Shown: positions 1,848-19,511, counted from the first letter of the stretch. The stretch: 64,000 nucleotides of DNA from Paracoccaceae bacterium (GCA_011620265.1 WOZM01000031.1:3289-67288), one strand, 5' to 3'. Numbers and translations: made by a program. Notes: generated by a model from the sequence alone, not told the origin.

Positions 1848-4043
1848 CTATTCGAGGATCGACAGCAGATTCGCGAAATCGTCGGTCCAGATACGCTTCC
1901 CGTCCGAGCGCAATTCCTCCCAGCGCGGGTCGGAGGCCAGCTCGCCCAGCGCCGCCTCGCTCCGGGCGAGCATCACCACCCGCGACGGGCTGTCGCCGGG
2001 ATCGGTGTCGGGATGGCCGGGATAGTCCTCGATCCGCGCCACGAGGCCGAGCGCCGCGGCGCTCCGCGCCAAGGGCCGCTGGATCGCGTAGTAGCGGTTC
2101 GAGATGTGGTAGACGAGCACCCCGTCCGGGGCGAGCCGGTCGAGATAGAGCCGCATCGCCTCATGCGTGGTCAGGTGCATCGGCACCGCGTCCGAGCCGT
2201 AGGCGTCGATGATCAGGATGTCGTATGTGAGCCCCTCCTGCGCGGCCAGCACCATCCGCGCGTCGCCGAGATGGGTGGGCGCGTCGCCGGCGCAGGCCGA
2301 CATGAAGGTGAAGTAATCCGGATTGCGGGCAATGTGGTCGACCACCGCGTCGATCTCGTAGAACTGCCAGGCCTGGCCTTCGCTCCGGTAGCAGGCGAGC
2401 GATCCGACGCCGAGCCCGACGATGCCGACGCTCTTCGCGGAGCGGCCGATATCGGAGGTCAGCACCCGCGCCATCGGCGCGTTCGGGTGGTAGTAGAAGA
2501 GCGGCTCGGGTCGCGCCTTGCCGTAGTCTGACTGCCGCTCGGCGCCGTGGATCGTGGTGCCGTTGGCGTAATGGCGCATCCCGTCCTCCTCCGTCACCCG
2601 GTGGGTGCCGAAGAAGCTGCGGTCGCGGAAGATGTCGCCGTCGGGGATCAGATAGGTGCCGCTCACCATCACCATCCCGGCGGCCAGGGCCGCCGCCGGC
2701 AGGGTGCGGCGGAGGACGATCGCGACGAGGGCGGCGAGCCCGAACATCGTCAGTTTCAGCGTCAGCCAGTCGGCGATGCCGAACGCCTTGACCGCGAGCA
2801 GGAGCGGCAGCACGGCAAGGAGACCCGCCACCACGCCCCGCGTCGCGAGCGCCCGCGTCAGCCGCATCTCCTTGCTGAGAACGAGGGTCGCCGCCAGAAG
2901 CGTCGTCACGCCGCCCTCGGCCAGGCTGTCGAAGACAACCGGCGCGACGATGGAGTTGAAAAGCCCGCCAAGCGCGCCGCCGACCGACATCACGAGGTAG
3001 AAAAGCGTGAGGTGCCGCCCGTCCGGCCGTGCGTCGTAAAGCCGGGTATGGGCGAACATCGCGACGGCGAAGAAGGCGAGGATCAGCCCCGCGACGCCCC
3101 AGAGGTTGACATGCGCGCCGGTCAGCCCGGCGAAGACCGCGCCGAGCCAGCCGAGCGCAGCCAGATAACCGATGCGCAGGATCGCCGGAGAGATCAGCGG
3201 ACGGCGGGTAAAGGTCAGGACGAAACTGAGCAGATAGAGCGAGAGCGGCACGACCCAGACCAGCGGGATCGCCCCGATATCGGTGCTGATCTTGGTTGTG
3301 ACCGCGAGCATCATCGAGGACGGCACGAAGGCCAGAAGCGTCCAGCGCCCGATCTGCCCGAGGCTCACCGGCGCCGCCGGGGCCTCGGCCCGGACCGAGA
3401 TCCAGCCGCCGCCGCGCGCGGCACTGAGACCGCTCGCCAGAAGGAAGGCCCCGAGCACCACGAACCCCATCGCCCAGCCCGCGCCGATCCGGGTCGCGCC
3501 GAAGAGCGGCTCGGCCACGAGCGGGAAGGCGAGAAGGGCCGTGAGCGAGCCGAGATTGCTTGCGCCGTAGAGGAAATAGGGATCGTCGGCCGACGGCCCG
3601 TCGCTGCGCGCATACCAGAACTGGATGAGCGGCGCGTTGGCCGAGAGGACCGCGAAGGGCACCCCGACGCCGAGCCCGAAGAGCGCCAGCGTCTGCCAGA
3701 CCGCCGGGGTTCCCGCCTCGTACTGCCAGCCCTCGGGGATCGCGAGCGGCAGGAAGAAGAGCGCCAGCGCCCAGAGCGTCAGATGCACCCCGATCTGCGC
3801 CGGAACCGGCAGGTAGCGGGTGATCAGGTGCGAATAGAGGTAGCCGCCGATCAGCACGCTCTGGAAGAACAGCATCGCCGTGGTCCAGACCGCCGGCGCG
3901 CCGCCGATCTGCGGCAGCACGATCTTGGCGAAGAGCGGCTGCACGAAGAAGAGAAGCGATGCGCTGAGAAAGATCGTCGCGGTGAAGATGATCGGGATCA
4001 TGATCCCCGGCCCTGTCACGGTCCTGCCCTCGGTCTGGTACAT
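1848..4043 (-). CDS. Polytopic membrane protein fused to a C-terminal spermidine-synthase-like (aminopropyl/methyltransferase fold) domain
   Basis: The 731-aa ORF has roughly 480 aa of hydrophobic helices. These are followed by VGIVGLGVGSLACY...YDILIIDAYGSDAVPMHLTTHEAMRLYLDRLAPDGVLVYHI, which is typical of SpeE-like domains. Confidence 0.8.
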   Translation of the reverse strand: MYQTEGRTVTGPGIMIPIIFTATIFLSASLLFFVQPLFAKIVLPQIGGAPAVWTTAMLFFQSVLIGGYLYSHLITRYLPVPAQIGVHLTLWALALFFLPLAIPEGWQYEAGTPAVWQTLALFGLGVGVPFAVLSANAPLIQFWYARSDGPSADDPYFLYGASNLGSLTALLAFPLVAEPLFGATRIGAGWAMGFVVLGAFLLASGLSAARGGGWISVRAEAPAAPVSLGQIGRWTLLAFVPSSMMLAVTTKISTDIGAIPLVWVVPLSLYLLSFVLTFTRRPLISPAILRIGYLAALGWLGAVFAGLTGAHVNLWGVAGLILAFFAVAMFAHTRLYDARPDGRHLTLFYLVMSVGGALGGLFNSIVAPVVFDSLAEGGVTTLLAATLVLSKEMRLTRALATRGVVAGLLAVLPLLLAVKAFGIADWLTLKLTMFGLAALVAIVLRRTLPAAALAAGMVMVSGTYLIPDGDIFRDRSFFGTHRVTEEDGMRHYANGTTIHGAERQSDYGKARPEPLFYYHPNAPMARVLTSDIGRSAKSVGIVGLGVGSLACYRSEGQAWQFYEIDAVVDHIARNPDYFTFMSACAGDAPTHLGDARMVLAAQEGLTYDILIIDAYGSDAVPMHLTTHEAMRLYLDRLAPDGVLVYHISNRYYAIQRPLARSAAALGLVARIEDYPGHPDTDPGDSPSRVVMLARSEAALGELASDPRWEELRSDGKRIWTDDFANLLSILE

Positions 4044-4118
4044 GTCTCTGCCCTGTTTCTTGTGACCGAGGCGTCCATAGCGGGAGATTTTGCTGAGAAT
4101 GAGGCAAAGACGCGCCGG

Positions 4119-5429
4119 TCATCCGGCCTGACGCCCCTCTCCGGCGCGGCTCGTGCCGCCGAACCCGGCGGCGTCGAGGATACGGGTCGCGGCGAGATCG
4201 ACGCCGGAGGCGTCGGCCATGCGTCGCGCGTTCGCCGCCAGCCGGTCGCGCATCGCCCGGTCGTCCAGCATCCCGTGCAGGGTCGCCGTCAGGCTCCCGG
4301 GCGTCCAGTCGGCACGGCCGAGGAAGCGGCCGGTCCCGGTTTCCCCGGCGCGGCGGGCATTGTCGTGGCCGTCCCAGCAATAGGGCATGATGAGCGACGG
4401 CACGCCGTGAAAGAGCGCCTCGCAAAACGAGTTGTTGCCGCCGTGATGGACGAAGAGATCGGCCTTGGCGACGACCGAGGGCTGCGGGAACCAGGCGTCG
4501 AGATGGACGTTGTCCGGCACCGCCCGATAGGCGTCGCGAAATCCGCCGACATTGACGAGAAAGCGCGCCGGGAAGGTCGCGAAGACCGCGAGCATCCGCT
4601 CGATCAGCGTCACGTCCATCGCCCCGAGGCTGCCGAAGGAGACGTAGATCAAGGGGCCGCCACCGCCCGGAAAGTCCGGCACCTCGTAGGGCGCTTCCTG
4701 CCGCACGCAGCCTTCGAGGAAGGTGAACCGCGCCGGATCGAGCGGCAGCGCGCGGTCGTGGCGGAGGATCGACGGGGCGAGGAGGAGGTTGTGGTAGGGT
4801 GAGGGTTCGAGAAAGAGCCCCTCGTCCAGCGGCGCGAGGCCCTGCTCGGCCCGGAATGCGTTGTAGCGGGCATGGGCCGGCCCGACCGCCCGTTCGTAGC
4901 GGTCGAGGAACGCGCCGCGCCCCGCCACGTCGCCGGCAGCGAGGCCGGAGAGATAGGGCGGCAGGTCCGGGTCCGGCAGTTCCGTCTCGGCGCAGGAGAT
5001 CACCCGGATCCACGGGCAGCCGGCGCGGGCGATGGCAGGGAACATCACGACGTTGTCGAGGACGACCGCATCGGGCCGCAGCCGGTTCAGAAGCGCGCGC
5101 AAGGGCGCCTCGGCCTGCACCGCGGTGTCGACGATCGCCTCCCATGTCGGGGCGACATAGGTCTCGATCTGGTCGATCGGATCGAGGTCGAAATGCGGCA
5201 GGTGACGGCGGATGAAATCCTGCCAGTAATCCTCGGGCACCGCCGCACCGGAGACGGGCAGGTGATATTCCTGAAAGCCGTAATCGGCGAAGATGCCGGT
5301 GAATCCGGCATGACAGATGAAGACCGGCCGCGCGCCACGCTCCTTCAGCGCCCGGGCGATGCCGACGCAGTTGAGCGCGGCACCGAAGCTTGCCTCGGGA
5401 AAGAAGGCGATGGTGGGCGTGTCGCTCAT
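4119..5429 (-). CDS. GT1-family (UDP-glycosyltransferase/MGT-like) glycosyltransferase, paralogue A
   Basis: An internal ATG at 5427-5429 of the 707-aa ORF gives MSDTPTIAFFPEASFGAALN. The C-terminal donor motif is WFPQPSVVAKADLFVHHGGNNSFCEALFHGVPSLIMPYCWDGHDNA. The start overlaps the stop of the upstream GntR gene by 4 nt. Confidence 0.8.
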   Translation of the reverse strand: MSDTPTIAFFPEASFGAALNCVGIARALKERGARPVFICHAGFTGIFADYGFQEYHLPVSGAAVPEDYWQDFIRRHLPHFDLDPIDQIETYVAPTWEAIVDTAVQAEAPLRALLNRLRPDAVVLDNVVMFPAIARAGCPWIRVISCAETELPDPDLPPYLSGLAAGDVAGRGAFLDRYERAVGPAHARYNAFRAEQGLAPLDEGLFLEPSPYHNLLLAPSILRHDRALPLDPARFTFLEGCVRQEAPYEVPDFPGGGGPLIYVSFGSLGAMDVTLIERMLAVFATFPARFLVNVGGFRDAYRAVPDNVHLDAWFPQPSVVAKADLFVHHGGNNSFCEALFHGVPSLIMPYCWDGHDNARRAGETGTGRFLGRADWTPGSLTATLHGMLDDRAMRDRLAANARRMADASGVDLAATRILDAAGFGGTSRAGEGRQAG

Positions 5430-6382
5430 CGTCCCGGCCGGCCGGTCATGCCGAAAAGCGGCGGCGCGCCACGGTTCGCGGCCTGCGGGCGCTGGCTGCG
5501 CGACAGCCTGAGATGAACGCTGAGAAGATCGGCGGCGACGGCGAGCTGGCCGCTTTCGAGATGGTCGAGAATGCCGAGATGCTCCTGCATCGCCTGCCGC
5601 AGCCGGACGACATTGCCCCGCGCGGTGGCGCCCGGCAGCTCGCGCAGCCGGTGATGCGCGATCAGCGCCTCGGCGACGAAGCGGTTCGCGGCTCCCTTCG
5701 CGATCAGGGTGTGAAATTCCGAGTCGAGCCGCTGGAACGCGCGCGGGTCGAGCCGGTCGTCGGGTTCGGCCAGGAACGCCACCATGTTGCGGCGAAGGGC
5801 CGCCGCGCGGTCCTCGTCCAGCCGGAAGCCCGGCGCGGTGAGCGCGGCGGGTTCCAGAAGCAGCCGGTATTCGAAGCTGTCGGCCTGCGATTCGGGGCTG
5901 TCGGGCAGGGTGGCAAAGACCCAGGACTGCCCCGGCGCGCGCGTCACCAGCCCGTCCTCGGCCAGGGTGCCAAGCGCCTTCAGCACCGTCCGGCGCTCGG
6001 CGCCGTAGCGGCGCATGACCTCGCCGACCGTGATCGTCTCGTCGAGCCGCCGTGCCGCACGGTCGCGGATGATCCGCTGGGCGAGCGCGCCCTCCTCGGC
6101 ATCGGGCAGCGGTTCGGCGAAGCTCGCTCCCGGCACGAAATCGCGCGAAAGGCGATACCCGGCATCGGCCTCGTGCACCGCAAGCCCCTGATCGGCCAGA
6201 AGTTTCAGCGCCGCCCGGACCGGCGTGCGCGAGACGTTGCACTGCGTTGCGATCAGTTGTTCGGGCAGATGCGCGCCGGGCTCCAGCCCGCGGTCCCGCG
6301 CGAGGTCGAGAATGCGCCGCGCAAGCTCCAGATGGTTCTGGCGGGGCCGGCGTGTCACCGGTTTCTCATCTCGTGGCGTCAT
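5426..6382 (-). CDS. GntR-family regulator with FadR-type C-terminal (FCD) domain
   Basis: An internal ATG at 6380-6382 gives MTPRDEKPV. The winged HTH is LPEQLIATQCNVSRTPVRAALKLLADQGL and the FCD-like helices include FHTLIAKGAANRFVAEAL. It is divergent from the Pot-type operon. Confidence 0.85.
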   Translation of the reverse strand: MTPRDEKPVTRRPRQNHLELARRILDLARDRGLEPGAHLPEQLIATQCNVSRTPVRAALKLLADQGLAVHEADAGYRLSRDFVPGASFAEPLPDAEEGALAQRIIRDRAARRLDETITVGEVMRRYGAERRTVLKALGTLAEDGLVTRAPGQSWVFATLPDSPESQADSFEYRLLLEPAALTAPGFRLDEDRAAALRRNMVAFLAEPDDRLDPRAFQRLDSEFHTLIAKGAANRFVAEALIAHHRLRELPGATARGNVVRLRQAMQEHLGILDHLESGQLAVAADLLSVHLRLSRSQRPQAANRGAPPLFGMTGRPGR

Positions 6383-6422
6383 CTTTCCGGGTCCCGGCGC
6401 CAGCGGCGGCTGCCCTCGGCGC

Positions 6423-6460
6423 AATTGACTATTGACGTATTTTTTCGCGCAATAATACTC
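6423..6460. promoter_or_regulatory. Candidate divergent promoter/GntR operator (TTGACTATTGACG ... AATAATACT)
   Basis: This is the only AT-rich stretch in the 6383-6560 intergenic region. It contains a direct TTGAC-TA-TTGAC repeat and -35/-10-like hexamers. This call rests on the motif alone. Confidence 0.3.
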
Positions 6461-6560
6461 TGTGGTCAAGGTGGCCGTCAGAATGCCGCCTGACCGTGGG
6501 CCGAAATTCGAAAATAAGACCGGCACATTCCCACTGACGTCCAGCAACAGAGGAACAGCC

Positions 6561-7610
6561 ATGCCACATTCCCTTGCCCCGTTGCGCATCGCCGCGACCC
6601 TTGCCGCCGGCCTTGCCGCCGCCGGCCCCGCCGCCGCCGAACTCGTCATCTCCAACTGGGACGGCTATATGGCGCCCGACGCCGTGGACGCCTTCGCCGC
6701 CGCGACCGGCGAGGCGGCCGAGATGGTCGTCCATGCGACGAACGAAGAGATCATGGGCAAGCTCATCGCCTCGGGCGGTCAGGGCTACGACGTGGTCTTC
6801 GTCTCCTCGCCCTTCGCCGAGGTGCTGAACAATCTCGGGCTTCTGGAGCCTGTCGACGCCGCGAAGGTGCCGAACCTCGCCAACCTCTATCCCGAGGCGG
6901 CGGCCCTGCCGCACGATCCCGGCAATACCTTCTCGGTGCCCTATGCCTGGGGCACGACCGGGCTTTGCTACCGCTCCGACCTCGTCTCGCCCGAGCCGAC
7001 CTCGTGGAACGACCTCCTGCATCCTGCCGAGGCTCAGGTGGGAAAGGTCACGCTTCTCGGCACCGACCGCTGGCTTCTGGCCGCAGGCTTCCTCGCCAGG
7101 GGCTATTCGGTGAACGAGACCGATCAGGCCAAGCTCGACGAGGTGGAGGCCGACCTGATCGAAGCGAAGAAGACCATGCTCGCCTTCGACGACACCACCT
7201 TCTATTCGAAGCTCGTCTCGGGCGAGGCGACGCTGGTTCATGCCTGGGACGGCTGGTGCAACTACGGCATCGCCGAGAATCCGGCGATCAAGTTCGTGAT
7301 CCCCTCGGAAGGCTCCGACCTCTGGGTGGACACGATGGTGGTGATGAAGGCGTCGCAGAACAAGGACGGCGCGTTCAAGTTCATCGACTACATCCTGGAT
7401 GCCAAGAACCACGCCTGGGCGGCCGAGAACATCCTCTACAAGGTGCCGAACAGGCCGGCGATGGAGAGCCTGTCGCCCGACATGGCCGCGACCTATCCCA
7501 ACATGGCGATGGCTCCGGCCGATCTCGTGGCGCTCGAACAGCTTCGCGACGTGGGCGAGGCGAGCCGCGCCTATGCCAAGGCGGTGAGTGCGATCAAGGC
7601 CGCTCAGTGA
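6561..7610 (+). CDS. PotD/PotF-family periplasmic polyamine-type substrate-binding protein
   Basis: The ATG at 6561 follows AGAGGAA. The signal peptide is MPHSLAPLRIAATLAAGLAAAGPAAA. It is followed by ELVISNWDGYMAPDAVDAF...SPFAEVL, which is typical of spermidine/putrescine binding proteins. Confidence 0.85.
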   Translation: MPHSLAPLRIAATLAAGLAAAGPAAAELVISNWDGYMAPDAVDAFAAATGEAAEMVVHATNEEIMGKLIASGGQGYDVVFVSSPFAEVLNNLGLLEPVDAAKVPNLANLYPEAAALPHDPGNTFSVPYAWGTTGLCYRSDLVSPEPTSWNDLLHPAEAQVGKVTLLGTDRWLLAAGFLARGYSVNETDQAKLDEVEADLIEAKKTMLAFDDTTFYSKLVSGEATLVHAWDGWCNYGIAENPAIKFVIPSEGSDLWVDTMVVMKASQNKDGAFKFIDYILDAKNHAWAAENILYKVPNRPAMESLSPDMAATYPNMAMAPADLVALEQLRDVGEASRAYAKAVSAIKAAQ

Positions 7611-7701
7611 TCTGATCTCGCGGGGCCGGAACACCGGCCCCGCCTTCCCATCGCAAAGACCCGGCCCAGTGCAAACCCAGACTACGAGATCGACCCTTCT
7701 C

Positions 7702-8535
7702 ATGGCTCCGGCCCTGCTGTGGCTGACGGCGCTGATGCTCGTGCCCTGCGGGCTCATCCTCGCCCTCGGCTTCTTCCGGCGCGGGCTTTACGGCGGGATC
7801 GAATACGCCTTCACGCTGGAGAACTTCGCGCTGATCGTCGATCCGCTTTATGCGGGCATCTTCCTGACCTCGGCACGGATTGCCGGAACCGCCACGCTCA
7901 TCGCCGTCATCGTCGGCTATGCCGCCGCCTATGCCATCGCTGCGGCACCCCGGCATCGCCAGCCGACGCTCCTCTTCCTCGCCGTCCTGCCGTTCTGGTC
8001 GAACTACCTGATCCGCACCTATGCCTGGATCGTGCTTCTGAACCGCGAGGGGTTGATCACCCAAGGCCTGCGGCTGATGGGATACGAGGGCGAGCCGCCC
8101 TCGATGCTCTATACCGAAGGCGCGGTGATCACGGGGCTGGTCTACAACTACCTGCCCTTCGTGGTCCTCGCCTGCTATGCGCCGCTCGCCCGGCTCAACC
8201 CCGAACTGGCCGAGGCCTCGCGCGACCTCGGCGCCTCGGCCTTCACCACGTTCCGGCGGGTGATCCTGCCGATGACCCTGCCGGGGATCGCCGCCGGTGC
8301 GGTCTTCGTCTTCGTCCTTTCCATCGGCAATTTCATCACGCCGGCGCTGCTGGGCGGAGGGCGGTTCCAGATGATGGGCAACCTCATCTACGCGCAGTTT
8401 CTGACTGCCAATGACTGGCCCTTCGGCGCGGCGATCTCGATGGTGCTGATCGCGATCATGATGGGGTTGCTGACCTTGCAGGCCATCGCCGCCGAGCGTG
8501 GCGCCGGCGAACGGCGGGAGGGCGCAAATGGCTGA
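7702..8535 (+). CDS. ABC transporter permease, PotB-like
   Basis: The ORF is 7588..8535, and the start is uncertain (GTG 7588, GTG 7669 or ATG 7702). It has six predicted TM segments and the EAA-type loop ELAEASRDLGASAFTTFRRVILP. Confidence 0.85.
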   Translation: MAPALLWLTALMLVPCGLILALGFFRRGLYGGIEYAFTLENFALIVDPLYAGIFLTSARIAGTATLIAVIVGYAAAYAIAAAPRHRQPTLLFLAVLPFWSNYLIRTYAWIVLLNREGLITQGLRLMGYEGEPPSMLYTEGAVITGLVYNYLPFVVLACYAPLARLNPELAEASRDLGASAFTTFRRVILPMTLPGIAAGAVFVFVLSIGNFITPALLGGGRFQMMGNLIYAQFLTANDWPFGAAISMVLIAIMMGLLTLQAIAAERGAGERREGANG

Positions 8536-9322
8536 CCGTTCGCCCGCCACCCGCCGCAGCCTCGCCGTCCTGCTCGCGGCAGTCTTCGCCTTCCTCTACA
8601 TCCCCATCGTGACGCTCGTCGCGCTCAGCTTCAACGACGGCGGGCTGCCCACGGCGTGGACCGGATTCTCGGTGAAATGGTACGGCACGCTTCTGGCGAA
8701 CCGCGACATTCTCTCGGCCGCGCTCAACACGCTGATCGTCGCGGTGATCTCCACCGCCATCGCGGCGGTGCTGGGCACGCTCCTCGCGCTCGGGATCGAG
8801 ACGCGGCGGCGAAGGGGCCGGGCGCTCGAGGCGCTGGTCTTCGCGCCGATGATCATCCCGGACATCGTGCTGGCCATCGCGCTTCTCAGCTTCTTCTCGC
8901 TTTTGAAATTTCCGATGGGGCTGCATACGATCATCCTCTCCCATGTCGTCTTCAACCTCGCCTTCGTCTCGGCCGTGGTGCGGGCGCGGCTGAAAAGCTT
9001 CGACTGGTCGGTGACGGAAGCCTCGGCCGATCTTGGCGCACCGGCTTTCACCACCTTCCGCCGGGTGACACTGCCCCTGATCCTGCCCGCCGTCATCGCC
9101 GGCGCGCTGCTGGCCTTCACCCTGTCCGTGGACGAGTTCATCATCGCCTTCTTCACCGCCGGGGCGGGGCGCGCATCGACCACGCTGCCGATGCAGATCT
9201 TCGCGATGATCCGCTTCGGCGTGACGCCCGAGATCAACGCGCTCGCGACGCTGGTGATGATCGTCTCGGTCACGGCGCTGACGCTCTCGCAGCGGCTGAA
9301 CAAGGGGGTGATCGCCCCGTGA
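8528..9322 (+). CDS. ABC transporter permease, PotC-like
   Basis: The ATG at 8528 overlaps the PotB-like stop codon (ATGGCTGA). The protein contains the loop VTEASADLGAPAFTTFRRVTLP. Confidence 0.85.
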   Translation: MADRSPATRRSLAVLLAAVFAFLYIPIVTLVALSFNDGGLPTAWTGFSVKWYGTLLANRDILSAALNTLIVAVISTAIAAVLGTLLALGIETRRRRGRALEALVFAPMIIPDIVLAIALLSFFSLLKFPMGLHTIILSHVVFNLAFVSAVVRARLKSFDWSVTEASADLGAPAFTTFRRVTLPLILPAVIAGALLAFTLSVDEFIIAFFTAGAGRASTTLPMQIFAMIRFGVTPEINALATLVMIVSVTALTLSQRLNKGVIAP

Positions 9323-10302
9323 CGGCGCTTCTCTCCATCGGCGGCGTGACCAAACGGTTTGGCCGCGTGACGGCGATCGACCGGCTGTCGCTCGACATAC
9401 ATGAAAACGAATTCTTCGCGCTGCTCGGCGCCTCCGGCTCCGGCAAGACGACGCTTCTGCGGATGCTCGCGGGGTTCGAGACACCCGAAGCGGGCGCGAT
9501 CCTTCTGGACGGCAAGGACATCTCCCGCATGCCGCCGAACCGGCGGCCGGTGAACCTGATGTTCCAGAGCTATGCGCTGTTCCCGCACATGAGTGTCGAG
9601 GGCAACATCGCCTACGGGCTGGAGATGGAGCGGCTTGCGAAGCCCGAGATCGCCCGGCGGGTGGGCGAGATCATGGAGGTGACCGAGCTGTCGTCGATGG
9701 CGAGGCGCAAGCCCGACCAGCTTTCCGGCGGCCAGAAGCAGCGCGTGGCGCTGGCGCGCGCGCTGGTGAAACGCCCGCACCTTCTCCTGCTCGACGAACC
9801 CCTCGGCGCGCTTGACAAGAAGCTCCGCGCCGCGATGCAGCTCGAACTGAAGCGGCTTCAGCACGAGGTCGGCATCACCTTCATCGTCGTCACCCACGAC
9901 CAGGAAGAGGCGCTGGTGATGGCCGACCGGGTGGCGATCCTGCGCGACGGCCGCCTCCTGCAATGCGGCACGCCGCACGAGGTCTATGAGCATCCCGCCA
10001 ACCGCTTCGCCGCCGATTTCATCGGGGTGATGAACTTCATCGAGGAGGATGGCCGGACGCTCGCACTCCGGCCAGAGCGCATCCGCCTCTTCCCCGAACG
10101 CGCCGACCGCACCACCGAAGGCCGCGTGACCGCACGGGCCTATCACGGGCTCGACCTGCAACTGCATGTGGAAACGCCACTTTCCCCCCGCCCGCTTCTC
10201 GTCCGCCTGACCGCCGACGCGGCCGACCGGCGCCCGGTCGCGGAAGGCGACACCGTCACGCTCGGCTGGAACGACGCCGATACCCGTATCTTCAAGGACT
10301 AG
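9319..10302 (+). CDS. ABC transporter ATPase, PotA-like
   Basis: The GTG at 9319 overlaps the PotC-like stop (GTGA). It has Walker [10 protein letters not shown], the signature [15 protein letters not shown], Walker B LLLLDEP, and a C-terminal TOBE-like tail. Confidence 0.9.
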
Positions 10303-10312
10303 GGAGACCACA

Positions 10313-11590
10313 ATGGCCCAGAAAACCTTCGCCTTCTTCCCCGAAGCCGCCTTTGGCCCGGCGTTGAATTCCGTCGGCATTGCCCAGGCCGTCGAGGCGC
10401 GCGGCCACAAGGCGGTGTTCCTGTCCGACCCCGGCTTCGTCGATGTCTACAAGGGCTACGGGTTCGAGGCGCATCCGGTGGCCTTGTCCGAACCGATGCC
10501 GCCCGAACAGATGGCGAAGTTCTGGGAGGACTTCATCAACGGCCACATCCCGAACTTCCGCAAGTCGCCCTACGACCAGATCGACAATTACGTGAAGGAT
10601 TGCTGGACCGCGATCGTCGACAGCGCAAAATGGGCCGAGAAGGACCTGCCGGGGGTGCTGGCGAAGATCAGGCCGGACGTGATCGCGGTCGACAACGTCA
10701 TCCTCTTCCCCGCGATCAAGCAATACGGCGTGCCTTGGGTTCGCGTGATCTCCTGCTCGGAAAACGAGATCGAGGATGAGGGCATCCCGCCGCATCTCTC
10801 CGGCTGCGGCGAGAAGGACCATGCCTGCCACAAGCGCTTCCGTGACCGGTTCAACGAGGTGATCCGGCCGATCCACGACGACTTCAACGCCTTCCTCGGC
10901 GCCTGCGGCGAAGACCCCTATCCGATCGGCCAGTTCTTCGAGGCGTCGCCCTATCTCAACCTGCTGCTCTACCCCGAGCCGGTGAAGTTCGACCGCGAGG
11001 TGCCGCTCGATCCCGCGCGGTTCCAGTATCTCGAAGGCTGCGTGCGGAAGGAGGAAGCCTACGATGTCCCGACCTTCACGAAGAACAATGACGGGCCGCT
11101 TCTTTATGTCTCCTTCGGCTCGCTCGGCGCCGGCGATACCGAGCTTCTGAAGCGGATCATCGCGGCGCTGGCCAAGTCGCGCTACCGGGCGCTGGCCAAT
11201 ATCGGCGACTATGCGGCCGAATACCCGGACCTGCCGGGGAACGTGCAGGTCGCCGGCTGGTTCCCGCAGCCTTCGGTGATCCCGCAGGTCGATGCGGTGA
11301 TCCATCACGGCGGCAACAACTCCTTCACCGAGTGCCTCTATTTCGGCAAGCCGGCGATCATCATGCCCTATGTCTGGGACGGCCACGACAACGCGACGCG
11401 GGTGGAGGAGACCGGCCACGGCTTCAAGATGCCGCGCTACGACTGGACCGATGCGGAGCTTCTGGCGAAGATCGAGGCCTGCCTGACCGATCCGGCGATG
11501 ACGGCGAAGCTTGCGGCGACCTCAAAGCACATGCAGGCGCAGAGCGGCCCCGCCAAGGCGGCGAAGCTGCTGGAGGGGCTGCTGACGTGA
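10313..11590 (+). CDS. GT1-family glycosyltransferase, paralogue B
   Basis: The 425-aa ORF starts 10 nt after the potA-like stop, with a GGGAGA RBS. It is colinear with paralogue A (MAQKTFAFFPEAAFGPALNSVGIA ... WFPQPSVIPQVDAVIHHGGNNSFTECLYFGKPAIIMPYVWDGHDNA). Confidence 0.8.
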   Translation: MAQKTFAFFPEAAFGPALNSVGIAQAVEARGHKAVFLSDPGFVDVYKGYGFEAHPVALSEPMPPEQMAKFWEDFINGHIPNFRKSPYDQIDNYVKDCWTAIVDSAKWAEKDLPGVLAKIRPDVIAVDNVILFPAIKQYGVPWVRVISCSENEIEDEGIPPHLSGCGEKDHACHKRFRDRFNEVIRPIHDDFNAFLGACGEDPYPIGQFFEASPYLNLLLYPEPVKFDREVPLDPARFQYLEGCVRKEEAYDVPTFTKNNDGPLLYVSFGSLGAGDTELLKRIIAALAKSRYRALANIGDYAAEYPDLPGNVQVAGWFPQPSVIPQVDAVIHHGGNNSFTECLYFGKPAIIMPYVWDGHDNATRVEETGHGFKMPRYDWTDAELLAKIEACLTDPAMTAKLAATSKHMQAQSGPAKAAKLLEGLLT

Positions 11591-11952
11591 GCTCCGCCCC
11601 GCATCTCCACGACGCCTCGACGCGCGGCGATCTGATCGACTGGGGGGCGCAGCCCGACGCGATCTCGGGCGCCTCGCAGTCTTCCGGCCGGCTCGTCCAC
11701 AAGGGGCCGGGGAACCGACCCGAGATCGGTATCTGGACCTGCACGCCGGGGCGCTGGCGGCTCTCCATCCCGCGCGACGAATTCTGCCATTTCGTCGCCG
11801 GCCGGGCCACCTATCGCGCCGATACAGGCGAGGTGATCGAGGTCGCCGCCGGCACCTCAATCCTTTTCCCCGCCGGATGGTCGGGGGAGTGCGAGGTGCA
11901 CGAAACCATGCGCAACATCTACTACCTCACCGACAGGGAGCCGACCGAATGA
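11587..11952 (+). CDS. Small single-domain cupin (cupin_3 / DUF861-like), copy 1
   Basis: The GTG at 11587 overlaps the GT stop (GTGA). The 121-aa protein reads LIDWGAQPDAISGASQSSGRLVHKGP...DEFCHFVAGRATY...FPAGWSGECEVHETMRNIYY. Confidence 0.7.
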   Translation: MSSAPHLHDASTRGDLIDWGAQPDAISGASQSSGRLVHKGPGNRPEIGIWTCTPGRWRLSIPRDEFCHFVAGRATYRADTGEVIEVAAGTSILFPAGWSGECEVHETMRNIYYLTDREPTE

Positions 11953-12293
11953 CCACGCCAGTGATGCGCAATCCGCTTGAACAGACCGACCTCGTCGATT
12001 GGGGCGTCATCCCGACGATGATCGAAGGCGAATCCCGCACCTCCGGCCGGGTGTTTCACAAGGGTCCGAACGGAGAGAGCGAATGCGGACTCTGGATCTG
12101 CACGCCGGGCAAGTGGTTCTGCCATGTGACGAAGGACGAGTTCTGCCATTTCCTTCAAGGGCGCTGCACCTATGTCCATGAGAGCGGCGAGGTGATCGAG
12201 ATCACCCCCGACACCGCCGCCTTTTTCCCGCAGGACTGGAAGGGCACCTGCACCGTCCACGAGACCATCAAGAAGGTCTACATGATCCGATGA
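11949..12293 (+). CDS. Small single-domain cupin (cupin_3 / DUF861-like), copy 2
   Basis: The ATG at 11949 overlaps the copy-1 stop (ATGA). The 114-aa protein is clearly homologous to copy 1 (LVDWGVIPTMIEGESRTSGRVFHKGP...DEFCHFLQGRCTY...FPQDWKGTCTVHETIKKVYM). Confidence 0.75.
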   Translation: MTTPVMRNPLEQTDLVDWGVIPTMIEGESRTSGRVFHKGPNGESECGLWICTPGKWFCHVTKDEFCHFLQGRCTYVHESGEVIEITPDTAAFFPQDWKGTCTVHETIKKVYMIR

Positions 12294-13798
12294 TCTTCGA
12301 CCCCTCTCGCCCCGCCTGGTTCCTGACGCCCGCCTTCCACCCGATGGCGGGCGCGTCTCGCGATGTCATCGACCCGGCGACATTGGAGTCCGTCGGCCGG
12401 ACCGCCGAGGCTGACGAGGCAGAAATGCAGGCCGCACTCGCCGCCGTGACTGCGGCGCAGGCGAAGTGGAAGCGCGTCGATGCGAAGTCGCGCGCGAAGC
12501 TCCTGCACGACCTCGCCCATGTCATCGAGACCGCCGACCACCGCGCCGCCGCGATCCTGATGAGCCGCGAGATGGGCAAGCCCTATCCCGAGGCCATTGG
12601 CGAAATCGCGAATTGCGCGCCGATCTTCCGCTACTACGCCGAAATGGCACGGGACGAGGCGGGCAAGGTCGCCGGGACGACGCAGGCCGGCTCGTTCCAG
12701 TTCGCGCGCTACGAACCCCTGGGCGTCTCGGTCCACATCATGCCGTTCAACTTTCCGGTCTTGCTGATGTGCTGGACCGTCGCCGCTTCGCTCGCCGCCG
12801 GCAATGGCTGCATCGTCAAGCCGGCGCCGGCGACGACGCTCTCGACGCTGGAATTCATGAAATGCTTCCGGGCTCTGCCCGAGGGCCTCGTCGCCTGCCT
12901 GCCGGGCGGTGCCGGGCTGGCCGAAGCGCTCATCGCCTCGCCCAAGACCCATGCCGTCGCCTTCACCGGCTCGGTCGCGGCCGGAAAGGCGGTCGGCATC
13001 GCGGCGGCGGCGGCGATGAAGCCGGCGGTGATCGAGGCCGGCGGCAGCGATCCGATGATCGTCTGCGACAGCGCCCCCCTCGACGTCGCGGCGGCGGGCG
13101 CGGTGACGGCGGCCTTCCACCTTTCGGGACAGGTCTGCACCTCGGCCGAGCGGCTTTACGTCGTCGACAGCGTCCATGACGCCTTCGTCGCCGCCTTCGC
13201 CGAACGGACGAAGGCGCTTCGCATCGGCAACGGGCTGGAGCGGTCGGAGATCGGCCCGCTTGTGTCCGAGTCCGCCCGCGACCGCGTCATGGCGCTCGTC
13301 GCCGATGCCGTCGCGAAGGGCGCGAAGGTCGTCACCGGCGGGCGGGTACCGCCCGACCGCAACCGGGGCTGGTTCTACGAGCCGACGATCCTCACCGGCT
13401 GCACCGACGACATGGACCTCCTGCGGTCCGAATGCTTCGGCCCGGTCGCCGCCGTGGTCCGCGTCCGCGATTTCGACGCGGCCGTGGCCCGCGCCAACGC
13501 CTCGCCCTTCGGCCTCGGCGCCTCGGTCTTCACCACACGGCTGGACGAAGCGATGGAGGCGGCGGAGCGGCTCGAGGCCGGGATGGTCTGGGTCAACAAC
13601 CCGCTCATCGACAACGACGCGCTGCCGTTCGGCGGCTGGAAGGCCTCCGGCCTCGGGCGGGAGCTTGGCCGGCAGGGGCTGGATGCGTTCCGGCGCACCA
13701 AGATGGTGATCGTCGACCACGCGCCGAAAGTGCAGGATTGGTGGTATCCCTACCCGGACGACTGGTTTCTCGACGCCGGCGGACGGCGCCTCGGCTGA
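12290..13798 (+). CDS. NAD(P)-dependent aldehyde dehydrogenase
   Basis: The 502-aa ORF has an ATGA overlap with cupin 2. It contains ALDH motifs FTGSVAAGKAV, VIEAGGSDPMIV (catalytic Glu) and GQVCTSAERLYV (catalytic Cys). Confidence 0.9.
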   Translation: MIFDPSRPAWFLTPAFHPMAGASRDVIDPATLESVGRTAEADEAEMQAALAAVTAAQAKWKRVDAKSRAKLLHDLAHVIETADHRAAAILMSREMGKPYPEAIGEIANCAPIFRYYAEMARDEAGKVAGTTQAGSFQFARYEPLGVSVHIMPFNFPVLLMCWTVAASLAAGNGCIVKPAPATTLSTLEFMKCFRALPEGLVACLPGGAGLAEALIASPKTHAVAFTGSVAAGKAVGIAAAAAMKPAVIEAGGSDPMIVCDSAPLDVAAAGAVTAAFHLSGQVCTSAERLYVVDSVHDAFVAAFAERTKALRIGNGLERSEIGPLVSESARDRVMALVADAVAKGAKVVTGGRVPPDRNRGWFYEPTILTGCTDDMDLLRSECFGPVAAVVRVRDFDAAVARANASPFGLGASVFTTRLDEAMEAAERLEAGMVWVNNPLIDNDALPFGGWKASGLGRELGRQGLDAFRRTKMVIVDHAPKVQDWWYPYPDDWFLDAGGRRLG

Positions 13799-13822
13799 GC
13801 CCCGCAGAAGGAGAACGACGCG

Positions 13823-15043
13823 ATGCAGAGCTTTCGCAATTCCGATCCCGCCCCGCCGATCATGGTCGGATCGCCACCGCCGCCCGAATGGCGGGTGCCG
13901 CGGATCGACTGGGACCGCCCGCCCTGGAACCGCTGGACCTTCCAGCGGGTGAGCCAGATGATGCCGACCGCCCCGATCCGGCGCGGCGCGTCGGTCGCGG
14001 CCCTGCCCGCCGCCGAGGGGCGGCTGGACGACCTGACCTATGCCGACCGCGACGGCACTGCCACGAGTTTCGGCCGGATGCTCGACGCGACCTATACCGA
14101 TGCGATTCTGGTCGCCATCGACGGCCGCATCGTCCACGAGAGCTACCACAACGGCATGGGGCCGCGGTCGCTGCACCTCCTGCAGTCGGTGTCGAAGTCG
14201 ATCACCGCAACGGCCGCCGCAGGCCTCTTCGAGGACGGCACCATCGACCCGGCCGCGCCGATTTCCCACTACCTGCCCGAACTTGCCCGCACCGCCTGGG
14301 CCGGGGCGACGGTGCAGCATGTGCTCGACATGACCTCCGGCACCCGCTTCGACGAAACCTATGCGGCGCGCGACAGCGATGTCGGCAAGATGGACTATGC
14401 GTCGGGCTGGAAGCCGGCGCCCGAAGGGGTCGACGTGTCGGACTGGCCCACCTGCATGTGGGAGCAGATCCTCGGCCTGACCGTCGCCGAGGCCGAGCAT
14501 GGCGCGCGGTTCAGCTATCGCTCGATCGAGACGGATGTCTTCGCCCATGCGGTCGAGCGCGCGACCGGCCAGCGCCTTCCGCAGATCCTCTCGGAGCGGC
14601 TCTGGCAGCCGCTCGGCTGCGAGGAGGATGCCAGCATCACCGTCGATTCCGCCGGCTACGGGCTCGCCTGCGGCGGGATCAGCGCGGCGCTTCGCGATCT
14701 CGGGCGGTTCGCGCTGGCGCTTCTCAACGACGGGATGGTCGAGGGGCGGCAGGTGATCCCGCGCGCCTGGGTCGAGGATGTGCGGCACGGGGCCCACGGT
14801 CTTTTCGACGACGCGGCGCGGGTGGAGTTCCCCAACGGCTGCTACCGCAACCAGTTCTGGATCGAGGACCGCGACCGCCCGCGCCACCTCTGCCTCGGCA
14901 TCTTCGGCCAGATGATCTACGTGGCCCCGGATGCCGGGCTTGTCGCGGTGAAGCTCTCGACCTGGCCGGATTTCACCAGCACGCCGTTCCTCTTGCAGGC
15001 GCTCGACGGTCTCCACGCGGTGGAGCGTGCCTTCCGGGGCTGA
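13823..15043 (+). CDS. Serine hydrolase of the beta-lactamase fold, 6-aminohexanoate-dimer hydrolase (NylB)-like
   Basis: The 406-aa ORF has an AAGGAGA RBS and the SxxK motif LLQSVSKSITA. By-eye colinearity with NylB covers PPWNRWTFQRVSQMMP, TYTDAILV, IDPAAPISHYLPEL, VLDMTSG and a C-terminal KLSTWPD. Confidence 0.8.
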   Translation: MQSFRNSDPAPPIMVGSPPPPEWRVPRIDWDRPPWNRWTFQRVSQMMPTAPIRRGASVAALPAAEGRLDDLTYADRDGTATSFGRMLDATYTDAILVAIDGRIVHESYHNGMGPRSLHLLQSVSKSITATAAAGLFEDGTIDPAAPISHYLPELARTAWAGATVQHVLDMTSGTRFDETYAARDSDVGKMDYASGWKPAPEGVDVSDWPTCMWEQILGLTVAEAEHGARFSYRSIETDVFAHAVERATGQRLPQILSERLWQPLGCEEDASITVDSAGYGLACGGISAALRDLGRFALALLNDGMVEGRQVIPRAWVEDVRHGAHGLFDDAARVEFPNGCYRNQFWIEDRDRPRHLCLGIFGQMIYVAPDAGLVAVKLSTWPDFTSTPFLLQALDGLHAVERAFRG

Positions 15044-15141
15044 TCGGCCACCGTCGGCCCGCGCCGGGTTGCGGCATCGGGACGCGGCCGGTTGGTGCCT
15101 GGGTCGGTGAGGGAAATCAATTTGCTGATTTGCCCGGCGCT

Positions 15142-15337
15142 GTTGCACAGATCAGGTGATGGACGGGGTTCCCCTTTCCCGGGACAGACTCATCCCACGG
15201 CTTCGGTGACGGGTATGGCGAGCGCAGTGAAGCCATTCATCACGGCAACCCGGATCCGGACCTCTGCGACCTGACGGTCAAAGTCCCGGGCCGTGAGGCG
15301 CTGCCCCAGCAGTTTCACGCAACGCATCCAATCGTCG
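15142..15337 (-). mobile_element. IS5-family relic: one terminal repeat (GTTGCACAGA) plus the last 45 codons of a transposase
   Basis: The minus-strand segment 15190-15327 translates to MRCVKLLGQRLTARDFDRQVAEVRIRVAVMNGFTALAIPVTEAVG*. This is the conserved C-terminus of IS5-group DDE transposases. The rest of the element is missing. Confidence 0.6.
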
Positions 15338-15364
15338 GGAAAACGATCCCCCGGATCGTTTTCC
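15338..15364. repeat. Perfect palindrome: 12-bp stem with 3-nt loop (GGAAAACGATCC-CCC-GGATCGTTTTCC)
   Basis: Read directly from the sequence. It sits exactly at the junction between two unrelated IS fragments. Confidence 0.85.
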
Positions 15365-15399
15365 GATCCTCCTCATATCTCGACGCGGCTCCGGCGGCG

Positions 15400-16290
15400 A
15401 CAACCGCTCCATCGTCGCCAGATCGTCCGGCCGACCGGATCGCGGCGGACACGATCTATGGTGTGGGCCGGGTTTGCGCCGCCCTTGAAGACCGCCAGAT
15501 CGAAGCCGTCATTCCGCCTCTTCGGTCCCCCCGCCGCAAGGGAGCGCAGGGCTTTCCGACCGAGCGGTTCAAGTTCGATCCCCGTCCCGATGTGGTCCGA
15601 TGCCCGGCATTGAAGCGACTGACCCCGAGGAACAGTCCGAAATCGGGTCGATGGTATCGCGCCGACCGGTACGACTGCGCGGGTTGTCCTCTCAAGGCGC
15701 AATGCCTGCCCCGGGGCGCGCATCCCGCCGGGTGCATATCGTGACAAACCACGCGGCCATCCCGCGCGCCCGGCGCAAACGCGCGACGTGGGGCAAGGAC
15801 GACCACGAGATCTACACCCGGCATCGCTGGCAGGTCGAAGGCACGAATGGCACCGCCAGGACACTCCACGGGCTTGCCGGAGCCACCCGAAGGGGGTTCG
15901 CAAACATGAAGATCCAGGCCCTCCTGACCGCCATCGCCATGATCCACCGCCATTCCCCGGGATCGACCCGGCGGCGGACGCTCGGGGCAGACAAGGGGTT
16001 CGACGCGGCCGAGTTCGTCGCCGACCTGCGCCGGGCATGTGTGACGCCCCATGTCGCGCAGAGGTCACGATATTCAGCGATCGGCGGGTGCGCTCCCGTT
16101 TCATCCTGTCCATGGCCGCCAACAACCTCGCCCGGTTGCCACGGTTGCCGGCCGCATGACGATGAAAAACCTCGTGGGGCACACACGCCTGCCGGACCCA
16201 AAAGCGCGAGGCCGGGCAGCGAAGCCTGCAACGAAGGAAAACCGTTCCAGCCCGGTGACTGTTTCAGCCGCCTGTTAGAGCGTTCTAGCC
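15400..16290 (+). mobile_element. Mosaic of degraded transposase fragments (IS1182-like, then IS5-like); no intact ORF
   Basis: Shifting frames give three recognisable pieces. The first is ADTIYGVGRVCAALEDRQIEAVIPPL...RFKFDPRPDVVRCPALKRL...YDCAGCPLKAQCLP...YTRHRWQVEGTNGTARTLHGL. The second is TLGADKGFDAAEFVADLRRACVTPHVAQ. The third is a tail, FILSMAANNLARLPRL. Stops and frameshifts occur between the pieces. Confidence 0.6.
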
Positions 16291-16293
16291 GCC

Positions 16294-17157
16294 TCAGATC
16301 GCCGCCTTGCGGCTCTCCTCGAGGTAGATCTCCCGCAGCCGCGTCGCGACCGGTCCCGGCTTGCCGGAGCCGAGCACCGCCCCGTCGATCTCCACCACCG
16401 GCATCACGAAGGCCGAGGCGGAGGTGACGAAGGCCTCGTCGGCGCCCTTCGCCTCCTCGATGGTGAAGGGCCGCTCCTCGACCTCCATCTGCGCCTCGCG
16501 GGCGAAGCGCAGGACCGCCGCGCGGGTGATGCCGTGCAGGATGTCGCTCGACAGCTGCCGGGTGATGATCCGGCGGCCCTTGACGATATAGGCGTTGTTC
16601 GAGGTGCCCTCGGTCACCGCGCCCTCCTCGGTGAACCAGGCATCGTCGCAGCCGGCCTTCTTCGCCATCATCTTGCCCATCGACGGGTAGAGAAGCTGCA
16701 CCGTCTTGATGTCGCGCCGGCCCCAGCGGATATCGGGGATGGAGATTACCTTGATCCCCACCTTCGCCGCCGGATTGTCGGCAAGCCCCGGCTTCGACTG
16801 GGTGAAGAGCACGATCCCCGACGGCACCTTCTCGGGGTCCGGGAAGACGAAATCCCGGTCGCCGGGATTGCCGCGTGTGACCTGGAGATAGACCATCCCG
16901 TCCACGACCCCGTTGCGGGCCACCAGTTCCCGGTGGATCGCCAGCAGCTCGTCCGTCGAGACAGGCGCCGCCATGTCGAGTTCCGACAGCGACCGCGCGA
17001 GCCGCGCCGCATGGCCGTCGAAATCGATGAGCTTGCCGCCAAGGACGCTCGTCACCTCGTACACCGCGTCCGCCATCAGGAAACCCCGGTCGAAGACCGA
17101 GATCTTCGCGTCTTCCTCGGCCAGATACTCTCCGTTGACGTAGACGATGCGGCTCAT
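16294..17157 (-). CDS. Class IV (D-amino-acid / branched-chain type) pyridoxal-phosphate aminotransferase
   Basis: An internal ATG at 17155-17157 gives MSRIVYVNGEYLAEEDAKISVFDRGFLMADAVYEV. The 287-aa protein has the class IV fold signature, including RRDIKTVQLL (PLP lysine region) and EGTSNNAYIV. Confidence 0.85.
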   Translation of the reverse strand: MSRIVYVNGEYLAEEDAKISVFDRGFLMADAVYEVTSVLGGKLIDFDGHAARLARSLSELDMAAPVSTDELLAIHRELVARNGVVDGMVYLQVTRGNPGDRDFVFPDPEKVPSGIVLFTQSKPGLADNPAAKVGIKVISIPDIRWGRRDIKTVQLLYPSMGKMMAKKAGCDDAWFTEEGAVTEGTSNNAYIVKGRRIITRQLSSDILHGITRAAVLRFAREAQMEVEERPFTIEEAKGADEAFVTSASAFVMPVVEIDGAVLGSGKPGPVATRLREIYLEESRKAAI

Positions 17158-17649
17158 GGCGGCCTCCCTCGATTGGCTTGCGATCTCATCGGCCGTCATT
17201 CGGCGCGCGTCAAGCCCTCGGAACCCGCAATATCGGGGCCGGCAATCGAACCGGGGGGCGCGCGTATTACGTCGAAACGCCTGGCAATTTCTGAATGGCA
17301 TCACGTAATTCACGCACATTACAGATGCGCCACTGCACAGAACTGCGATTATCCCGGCTTATTCACCGAAAGAAAGAGGGCAAGGAGCAGTTTGGCGCAA
17401 TAGTCGTGAGACGGGATCAGAGGAACCAGCCTGCAACAAGGTGCCTCCGAGCACGCGGCTTTGATCCGGACCCGACCTTCGAACACCATACGGGCTCGCG
17501 GCATGTGTGACGCCGCATGAGAGGCCGGATACATGTCAGCACCCGATGACGCGCCAAAATCAGATCTGAAGATTCCACTTGCGCAAGGGGCGGCTATACA
17601 CGTTGCAGAACTGCTGCCCGAGGCATGACAGCCCCTTTCCCCATTGATG

Positions 17650-18131
17650 TCAGGCCACGCGGACGATCTCGGCGGTGCCGAGGACGTTGAAGCGGTTCAT
17701 GAGTGCGATGCGGAGCTCAACGCGATTTCGGCGGTCTGGCGGTCGGGGTCTCTTGCGGCGATGCGTTCACCGAAGGCCTTGAGGTCGAGCAGGTTGAGCG
17801 CCACAGGTTCGAGCGAACCTGCGAGGGCATCTTGGCCTCAATCCAGCTCCGGGGACACGTGGTATCCGGTCCAGCGCTTCCAGAACGCCCTGCCGTAGTG
17901 CCGGGTGGCGCGCAGTGTTTCGTTTCTGGCGATAGCCGCCGGGCAGTCCTCTTTCCAGGGCCGACCGTTCTTGCGGATCGGAATGATCGCGGTCGCCTCG
18001 CGCTCGATGATCGCGATGTGACAGCGGCGGGTGTCATAGGCACCATCCGCCGTGACCGTGCCGATCTCTTCGTCCTCCCCAGCGGTCTGTCTGAGCGGCA
18101 GCTTGAACAGGACCTTGATGGTCAGGCATGT
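17650..18131 (-). pseudogene. IS5-family transposase, C-terminal part (internal deletion plus frameshifts)
   Basis: The minus-strand translation is TCLTIKVLFKLPLRQTAG/EDEEIGTVTADGAYDTRRCHIAIIEREATAIIPIRKNGRPW...GRAFWKRWTGYH. A premature stop follows, and the shifted tail reads LKAFGERIAARDPDRQTAEI...LMNRFNVLGTAEIVRVA*. Confidence 0.65.
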
Positions 18132-19426: not shown

Positions 19427-19511
19427 GGACGTTCCCTCCTCGTGGCGATTTTGACATCACCACCTTGGCACATTGCGGTGCCGTCGGGTGGGGGTGTCCA
19501 CCCCATCAGAA

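Follow-up and report, generated by a model that had tools for sequence, protein, structure and literature searches.

The DNA considered here is a 64,000-nt stretch of Paracoccaceae bacterium (GCA_011620265.1 WOZM01000031.1:3289-67288), called the window below, with coordinates counted from its first letter. Close to its start lies a pair of divergent gene arms, or divergon. One arm encodes a GntR-family regulator, a UGT-type glycosyltransferase of family GT1 (GT1-A) and a membrane protein with a spermidine-synthase-like domain; the other encodes an ATP-binding cassette (ABC) importer of the PotABCD type, a second glycosyltransferase (GT1-B), two small cupins (Cup1 and Cup2), an aldehyde dehydrogenase (ALDH) and a serine hydrolase resembling NylB (Table 1). 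The part of this divergon that runs from GT1-A to the ALDH is conserved across two alphaproteobacterial orders, and it is very probably an amine-linked catabolic module built around the triad of GT1, cupin and ALDH. Families were assigned by Pfam and NCBIfam profile searches and by alignment to solved structures in the PDB; none of the GT1s, cupins, ALDH, binding protein or hydrolase reached an NCBIfam model at equivalog level. The gene list, families and junctions of a first-pass annotation of this DNA were each confirmed, coordinate by coordinate, by the map of open reading frames (ORFs), the junction sequences and the profile searches.

Table 1. Genes and other features of the divergon and its right-hand border (window coordinates).
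Feature	Coordinates	Strand	Basis
Membrane protein, C-terminal spermidine-synthase-like domain, 731 aa	1848-4043	-	NF037959
GT1-A, UGT-type GT-B glycosyltransferase	4119-5429	-	Pfam EryCIII-like_C/UDPGT
GntR-family regulator with FCD effector domain	5426-6382	-	Pfam GntR + FCD
Promoter/operator block of 28 bp, TTGACGTATTTTTTCGCGCAATAATACT (candidate)	6432-6459	+	Alignment, single occurrence in window
PotD-family periplasmic binding protein	6561-7610	+	Pfam SBP_bac_8; PotD is best NCBIfam match
10-bp G+C-rich hairpin just 3′ of potD	7620-7643	+	Fold z = -2.27
PotB-like permease (start GTG 7669 or ATG 7702)	to 8535	+	Pfam BPD_transp_1
PotC-like permease	8528-9322	+	Pfam BPD_transp_1
PotA-type ABC ATPase	9319-10302	+	TIGR01187
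GT1-B, UGT-type glycosyltransferase	10313-11590	+	Pfam, solved-structure alignment
Cup1, Cupin_3/DUF861, 121 aa	11587-11952	+	Pfam
Cup2, Cupin_3/DUF861, 114 aa	11949-12293	+	Pfam, AlphaFold2 (AF2) model, Foldseek
ALDH	12290-13798	+	Pfam Aldedh
NylB-like serine hydrolase (beta-lactamase family)	13823-15043	+	PDB NylB match
Degraded insertion-sequence (IS) remnant, right-hand limit of synteny	15120-16250	.	End of homology with closest relative (L088), DDE_Tnp_1_6 fragment

On the importer arm, potB and potC overlap by 8 nt (ATGGCTGA at 8528-8535) and potC and potA by GTGA at 9319-9322, and a 10-nt gap (10303-10312) leads from potA to GT1-B. Further overlaps join GT1-B to cupin 1 (GTGA at 11587-11590), cupin 1 to cupin 2 (ATGA at 11949-11952) and cupin 2 to the ALDH (ATGA at 12290-12293). 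The hydrolase begins after a gap of 24 nt (13799-13822) and is preceded by a good ribosome-binding site. On the opposite arm, gntR and GT1-A overlap through ATGA at 5426-5429, a junction beyond those listed earlier, and 75 nt separate the stop of GT1-A (4119) from the start of the membrane gene (4043). The importer and the enzymes form one co-regulated, translationally coupled unit, as had been proposed: the overlaps are real, and a 28-bp block between gntR and potD is conserved.

A scan of one genome per species yielded 450 stretches with relatives of GT1-B. The best 80 of these, from 80 different genomes, were compared, and their gene content was read by tblastn with every window protein. 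They belong to the Paracoccaceae, with Albidovulum, Defluviimonas and Frigidibacter (GT1-B 88-92% identity), and to the Hyphomicrobiales, with Mesorhizobium and related Rhizobiaceae-labelled genomes, GT1-B identity between the two alphaproteobacterial orders being ~85%. GT1-A, GntR and PotDBCA are kept, in the same order and on the same strand, in 69 of the 70 loci with sufficient left flank, and so are both cupins and the ALDH in 68 of the 69 with sufficient right flank. Since genes, order and strand are retained to this extent on either side, the arrangement is not due to chance. The first-pass annotation had also counted the NylB-like amidase and the spermidine-synthase-like gene in a set of 8-10 genes whose co-occurrence was to be checked; its inner genes do travel together, and these two outer ones stand beside the module in none of the 80 loci. 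Because the outer two lack conservation while the inner genes are kept, the conserved module extends over 4119-13798, with GT1-A and GntR on one arm and PotDBCA, GT1-B, the two cupins and the ALDH on the other.

The module is a widespread and horizontally mobile divergon. In Ruegeria conchae the full divergon lies on a 787-kb plasmid with an IS3 transposase behind it, and copies were found on plasmids or chromids of Ruegeria, Rhizobium, Shinella, Sinorhizobium and haloarchaea, with at least 9 bacterial and 2 archaeal records of plasmid-borne copies. Defluviimonas aquaemixtae carries PotDBCA, GT, one cupin and ALDH without gntR/GT1-A, and the genes that flank the module differ in every genome. 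The accessory status suggested earlier is supported by these plasmid and chromid copies and varying flanks, and not by the ground first offered for it, an IS terminal repeat about 100 bp beyond the end of the arm: no intact IS and no clear terminal repeat are present there.

Within the module, the unit that always stays together is GT1, Cupin_3 and ALDH, which had not been singled out before; it recurs in lineages without the remaining genes of the module and without its transporter arrangement. In one more distant locus (GT 74% identical; L091) the ALDH and a cupin are divergent from the GT, and in another (GT 56% identical; L092) the GT is followed by a fused double cupin, a glyoxalase-family gene and an ALDH; a Hwanghaeella locus (L081) has GT and cupin only. 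Plasmids of Natrialba and Natronorubrum encode a GT, cupin and ALDH that are 59%, 60% and 61% identical to those of the window. The neighbours of the triad in Natrialba magadii are genes for a member of the glutamine-synthetase family, GATase1, a class-III aminotransferase, an IclR regulator and a binding protein, together with two genes that resemble FAD-dependent amine oxidases; in Natronorubrum they encode a class-III aminotransferase, IclR, an FAD oxidoreductase and a Pot-type transporter whose binding protein is a near-canonical PotD with 11 of 13 ligand residues kept. In both haloarchaea, the genes immediately after the triad encode a ROK glucokinase-like protein and a phosphohexomutase (L094 12289-14861, L097 13242-15773); the mutase scores best against archaeal GlmM, below the cut-off. 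The presence of this pair hints at release or recycling of a hexose or hexosamine. A Chromatiales metagenome-assembled genome has a GT of 79% identity with a PuuD-like/PuuA-like pair on one side and a Pot-type transporter on the other; its PuuD-like gene scores 220 bits, where the equivalog model requires 266. The link of this GT1 clade to polyamine uptake and catabolism thus comes from three independent contexts, and the polyamine or amine theme read earlier from the window holds, given its Pot-type importer and the occurrence of the same GT1 beside PuuA/PuuD-like genes and Pot-type binding proteins elsewhere. No PuuA-type ligase, PuuB oxidase or PuuD hydrolase is encoded within 1-17 kb of the window; such genes adjoin the triad in the other lineages only.

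The two arms are separated by a 178-nt spacer between the divergent gntR and potD genes. The only two sigma-70-like sites between 1500 and 16500 are both in this spacer, one on each strand. An alignment of the spacer from 12 genomes contains an invariant block, TTGACGTAYTTTTTYNNGCAATARTACT, with a GTAT..ATAC inverted repeat. The 28-bp block (Table 1) has one occurrence in the window, where none is expected by chance, and each of 55 loci likewise has a single copy, in every case in the gntR-potD spacer. A search of the window that tolerated 3 mismatches gave no further copy in front of the hydrolase or the membrane gene. The block and its spacer fit an FCD-type repressor acting on a shared divergent promoter, with the block as candidate operator, and the GntR/FCD protein, whose position is conserved in the relatives, is likely the repressor of both arms.

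No Rfam RNA family matches anywhere in the window, no tRNA was found at 15-21 kb, and a sequence search for intrinsic terminators returned none that was convincing 3′ of GT1-A, the ALDH or the hydrolase. The hairpin that follows potD is a perfect 10-bp stem (CGGGGCCGG..CCGGCCCCG) without a T-run. Hairpins of this kind are common 3′ of binding-protein genes. The structure at 7620-7643 is probably an intercistronic mRNA stabilizer or attenuator and probably governs how much binding protein is made relative to permease.

The ATPase of the importer reaches the PotA model (TIGR01187, 362 bits; cut-off 355.6). The binding protein matches E. coli PotD with E 2.5e-40 and reaches neither the PotD nor the PotF equivalog (NF007048, 142.8 vs 582 bits; NF007962, 113 vs 636); judged by these scores, it is a PotD-family member and not an equivalog. 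Seven of the 13 ligand residues of E. coli PotD are kept (W34, Y37, S83, W229, W255, D257 and Y293), so that the aromatic box and Asp257 are retained, and six are changed (D168 to T, E171 to W, Y85 to P, E36 to G, T35 to D and Q327 to L). With Asp168, Glu171, Tyr85 and Gln327 lost, the ligand is probably something other than plain spermidine. One Mesorhizobium locus (L033, 13523-18400) and about 30 others of that genus have, on the opposite strand and a few kb downstream of the ALDH, a further, divergent transporter of the Pot type (PotC/B/D/A), which in L033 is separated from the ALDH by a short-chain dehydrogenase/reductase gene. This transporter is 26-57% identical to the window's importer and suggests a larger amine-utilization island in Mesorhizobium.

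The two glycosyltransferases are 48% identical to each other (BLASTP). Both score above the cut-offs of PF00201, PF06722 and PF04101, GT1-B keeps the HHGGNNS donor motif, and neither reaches the macrolide glycosyltransferase (MGT) model TIGR01426 (104 and 107 bits; cut-off 260). The best solved relatives of GT1-B are the spider-mite enzymes UGT203A2 (E 4.7e-52, a full-length alignment over residues 7-401) and UGT202A2. The catalytic base of TuUGT202A2 is His25, which has Asp140 as its partner (PMC10731231). Asp140 aligns to Asp127 of GT1-B, and His25 to a gap beside Pro16/Ala17 (FGPALN, residues 14-19); GT1-A has FGAALN at the same site (residues 15-20), again without His. The catalytic His is absent from 120/120 close homologues and from 8/8 bacterial representatives of 50%-identity clusters that were examined, and in arthropod-like representatives (28-34% identity) the site is mostly Gly-His. 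A general base of this kind is not required by an amine nucleophile, and Kerdpin et al. are said to have reported in 2009 that the human N-glucuronidating enzymes UGT1A4 and UGT2B10 lack this His. By analogy, the missing His may be taken as a lead that points to N-glycosylation. GT1-A, which is co-translated with the regulator, may make or remove its effector. More distant GT1 relatives (36-42% identity: P0246, P0249 and a Streptomyces plasmid) lie in neighbourhoods without cupin or ALDH that give no hint of function.

Spider-mite UGTs were acquired horizontally from bacteria, and the alignment of GT1-B with them is nearly gap-free through N-terminal regions that are absent from bacterial GT structures (PMC10731231). 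The bacterial GT1 clade may be close to the donor lineage, and its closeness to the mite enzymes may bear on the origin of that transfer.

Cup1 and Cup2 are 46% identical and match Pfam PF05899 with 58 and 61 bits (cut-off 23.5). Mean identity of Cup2 across the two orders is 84-88% in the alignment. Its AF2 model (predicted local distance difference test score, pLDDT, 96.5) was closest in Foldseek to DUF861 proteins without assigned function, 3bcw (template modelling score, TM, 0.85), 3es4 and 3myx; the characterized neighbours are PpnP and EutQ, both at TM ~0.6. PpnP is a cupin nucleoside phosphorylase that cleaves an N-glycosidic bond by phosphorolysis. E45, C51, C66, C101 and E105 are invariant in both the Cup1 and the Cup2 type, and H67 and H104 nearly so. 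The Cup2 type has six conserved Cys, with C46, C58 and C73 nearly invariant there. Such cysteine-rich cupins suggest a metal or redox centre that would be unlike the classic His/Glu cupin site. The fused double cupin of L092 (244 aa) has one half 71% identical to Cup2 and the other 57% identical to Cup1, and this fusion suggests that Cup1 and Cup2 may form a heterodimer. The window has two cupins only; a third Cupin_3 gene (133 aa, ~47% identical to both Cup1 and Cup2) lies between them in L001 (11577-11978) and is also found in L003, L007, L010-L013 and many Mesorhizobium loci. The ALDH matches Pfam Aldedh over its full length (483 bits) and reaches neither the aminobutyraldehyde (366 vs 615) nor the betaine-aldehyde (361 vs 669) dehydrogenase equivalog.

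A mobile GntR/FCD divergon that imports an amine and processes it through the triad is the best explanation of the whole, although we hold it tentatively. The PotD-type importer would take up an amine, probably a polyamine or a close analogue, and the GT1 would glycosylate its amino group from a nucleotide sugar. The free end of the conjugate would then be converted to an aldehyde by an oxidase or aminotransferase encoded elsewhere in the genome (next door in haloarchaea), and the ALDH would turn this aldehyde into an acid. Finally, the cupins would cleave or rearrange the N-glycoside and release the sugar, which in haloarchaea could be recycled by the adjacent kinase and mutase. The sugar would thus serve as a transient protecting group, as glutamate does in the Puu pathway, by which putrescine is degraded through gamma-glutamylation with PuuA, PuuB, PuuC and PuuD and imported by PuuP/Pot systems. 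This specific chemistry of transient N-glycosylation, which we infer, is doubtful. About as doubtful is the wider proposition of a third protecting-group strategy for polyamine or diamine catabolism, common to bacteria and haloarchaea and standing beside acetylation and gamma-glutamylation, in which cupin cleavage might proceed by phosphorolysis as in PpnP.

Several observations weigh against the scheme. In both paralogues the sugar-binding motif DQ is replaced by DG, so the sugar could be other than glucose. The likeness of the cupins to PpnP is weak (TM ~0.6, 12-14% identity), and the structures closest to the model have no known function. Solved structures of SSADH, ALDH1/2, BADH and phenylacetaldehyde dehydrogenases are all equally distant from the ALDH, and no specificity can therefore be assigned to it. 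The bacterial cluster encodes no oxidase or aminotransferase, and the aldehyde-forming step consequently depends on a gene outside it. As intermediates, N-glycosylamines of primary amines would be awkward, being unstable in water. With 6 of 13 pocket residues changed in the window's PotD, its ligand may not be a standard polyamine. Across lineages, moreover, the binding proteins that accompany the GT are non-orthologous (25-31% identity): the enzymes are the constant part, and transporters are recruited locally.

Some of the same observations would suit a route of glycoside salvage, which we consider unlikely. Here a pre-formed glycosylated amine, for instance an amino-glycoside or a glycosylated polyamine from another organism, would be imported and the GT1s would run in reverse with UDP, giving a UDP-sugar and the aglycone; the cupins would isomerize or open the sugar or aglycone, and the ALDH would oxidize the aldehyde. 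GT1 reactions are known to be reversible, the altered PotD pocket could take a bulkier ligand, the lack of an oxidase in the cluster is accommodated, and the haloarchaeal ROK kinase and phosphohexomutase fit sugar catabolism equally well. However, a natural substrate that soil, marine and soda-lake habitats would have in common is not known, Puu-like genes for free polyamines are complete in the Chromatiales and Natrialba contexts, and the Natronorubrum binding protein, so close to canonical PotD, points to plain polyamines. Loss of the catalytic His is also left unexplained by salvage.

Improbable, in turn, is detoxification by conjugation, in which the GT1s would glycosylate toxic amines, aminoaldehydes or xenobiotics and the ALDH would remove aldehydes, with the importer coincidental or scavenging. 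The closest solved relatives, UGT203A2 and UGT202A2, are indeed detoxifying enzymes (PMC10731231), and the interorder conservation of GT1-B argues, by contrast, for one defined substrate and not for promiscuity. Aminoaldehydes are commonly detoxified by ALDHs; nevertheless, a coupled binding-protein importer under a metabolite-sensing FCD repressor is a signature of catabolism, whereas detoxification pairs with exporters.

The first-pass annotation had favoured uptake and breakdown or remodelling of an amide-linked or glycosylated polyamine-like molecule; in the form weighed here, the substrates would be amide-linked polyamine-like molecules or omega-amino-acid oligomers, with the NylB-like amidase and the membrane protein as integral parts. 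The hydrolase is by homology a true NylB-family member: its best solved relative is the 6-aminohexanoate-dimer hydrolase NylB (E 3e-62, residues 26-384), and its S-x-x-K nucleophile motif is SVSK at residue 122. Cleavage of amide bonds in omega-amino-acid oligomers is its predicted activity. It follows the ALDH closely, behind its own ribosome-binding site, and L088, a metagenome contig of 89% identity, is alone in keeping this junction. Within the 80 loci the sole match to the hydrolase is a paralogue of 43% identity that lies ~4 kb past the ALDH on the opposite strand, and orthologues from other Paracoccaceae (69-73% identity) have unrelated neighbours, being placed between LysR genes or by a sulfotransferase. 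The hydrolase is thus a recent, lineage-specific addition at the operon end, and the amide-linked substrate idea rests on a gene added in this lineage alone. The membrane gene just passes the NF037959 model (the ‘fused MFS/spermidine synthase’ subfamily; 42.7 bits, cut-off 40) and scores 19 bits against the 304 of the polyamine aminopropyltransferase equivalog PRK04457. Neither it nor the LysR gene was detected by tblastn in any of the 80 loci; it was rejected as a part of the system and is a chance neighbour. With neither gene preceded by a second operator copy, and with the triad occurring without both in every other lineage, the amide route is largely refuted as a general pathway and very improbable overall, applying at most to this strain.

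To the right of the hydrolase, homology with L088, the closest relative of the window, stops at 15120. Beyond this point lie degraded transposase pieces, among them a match to DDE_Tnp_1_6 that covers 15600-16427 and at 22 bits stays under the Pfam cut-off, and, farther on, an ORF for a transposase of the IS110 type (18698-19426); an intact IS bounding the arm was rejected, the fragments near its end being degraded. The flank from 15120 to 19500 is a lower-GC patch (~0.61) with mobile-element debris, and a class-IV (D-amino-acid or branched-chain) aminotransferase (16294-17157, minus strand) lies between the transposase fragments. Further along, the window encodes a member of the D-lyxose isomerase family (20035-20709), a resistance-nodulation-division (RND) efflux pump on the minus strand whose genes include two of the membrane-fusion type (20700-25857) and, at 33976-36042, a protein of 688 aa that carries a Glyco_tran_28_C domain.

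As sources of nitrogen and carbon, polyamines are of major importance in soil, the rhizosphere and the sea; their breakdown is known to proceed by transamination, gamma-glutamylation, acetylation or spermidine dehydrogenase. In the full-text literature, mostly without subscription journals, we found no described pathway that uses this gene set, in agreement with the earlier claim, and no description of a DUF861 function in amine metabolism. As a catabolic operon the module is a known kind of system; its enzyme combination is undescribed. If the proposed scheme is true, a route for polyamines through a nucleotide-sugar glycosyltransferase would be new metabolism, and it would provide both the first biochemical function for DUF861 cupins, an orphan family of structural genomics, and the first function for the GT1 clade that lacks the canonical catalytic base.

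Each component has a known counterpart from which it departs. The window hydrolase is a full-length homologue of NylB with the S-x-x-K motif, and differs in that it is not conserved with the module and its orthologues stand alone. The importer shares with PotABCD and PotFGHI of E. coli the four-component architecture, a PotA that passes its model, and a PotD-like protein with the aromatic box and Asp257, whereas its binding protein falls far below the equivalog cut-offs and has lost ligand residues. The glycosyltransferases resemble UGT-type GT1s such as TuUGT203A2/TuUGT202A2, OleD and MGT in the signature of the GT-B fold, the HHGG-N-S motif and the Asp of the dyad; in the window the His is replaced (FGP/FGA), DQ has become DG, and the context is catabolic and not one of antibiotics or xenobiotics. 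Like the DUF861 proteins (3bcw, 3es4 and EutQ) and PpnP, the cupins are single-domain and RmlC-like, but they are cysteine-rich and occur as 2-3 paralogues or a fused pair. In comparison with the Puu pathway, the window lacks a glutamine-synthetase-like ligase, an FAD oxidase and a gamma-glutamyl hydrolase, and has the GT and DUF861 cupins instead. Both systems combine amine uptake with an ALDH step under a dedicated repressor, PuuA/PuuD-like genes adjoin the triad in the Chromatiales genome and in Natrialba, and the transient protecting group proposed here would be alike in kind.

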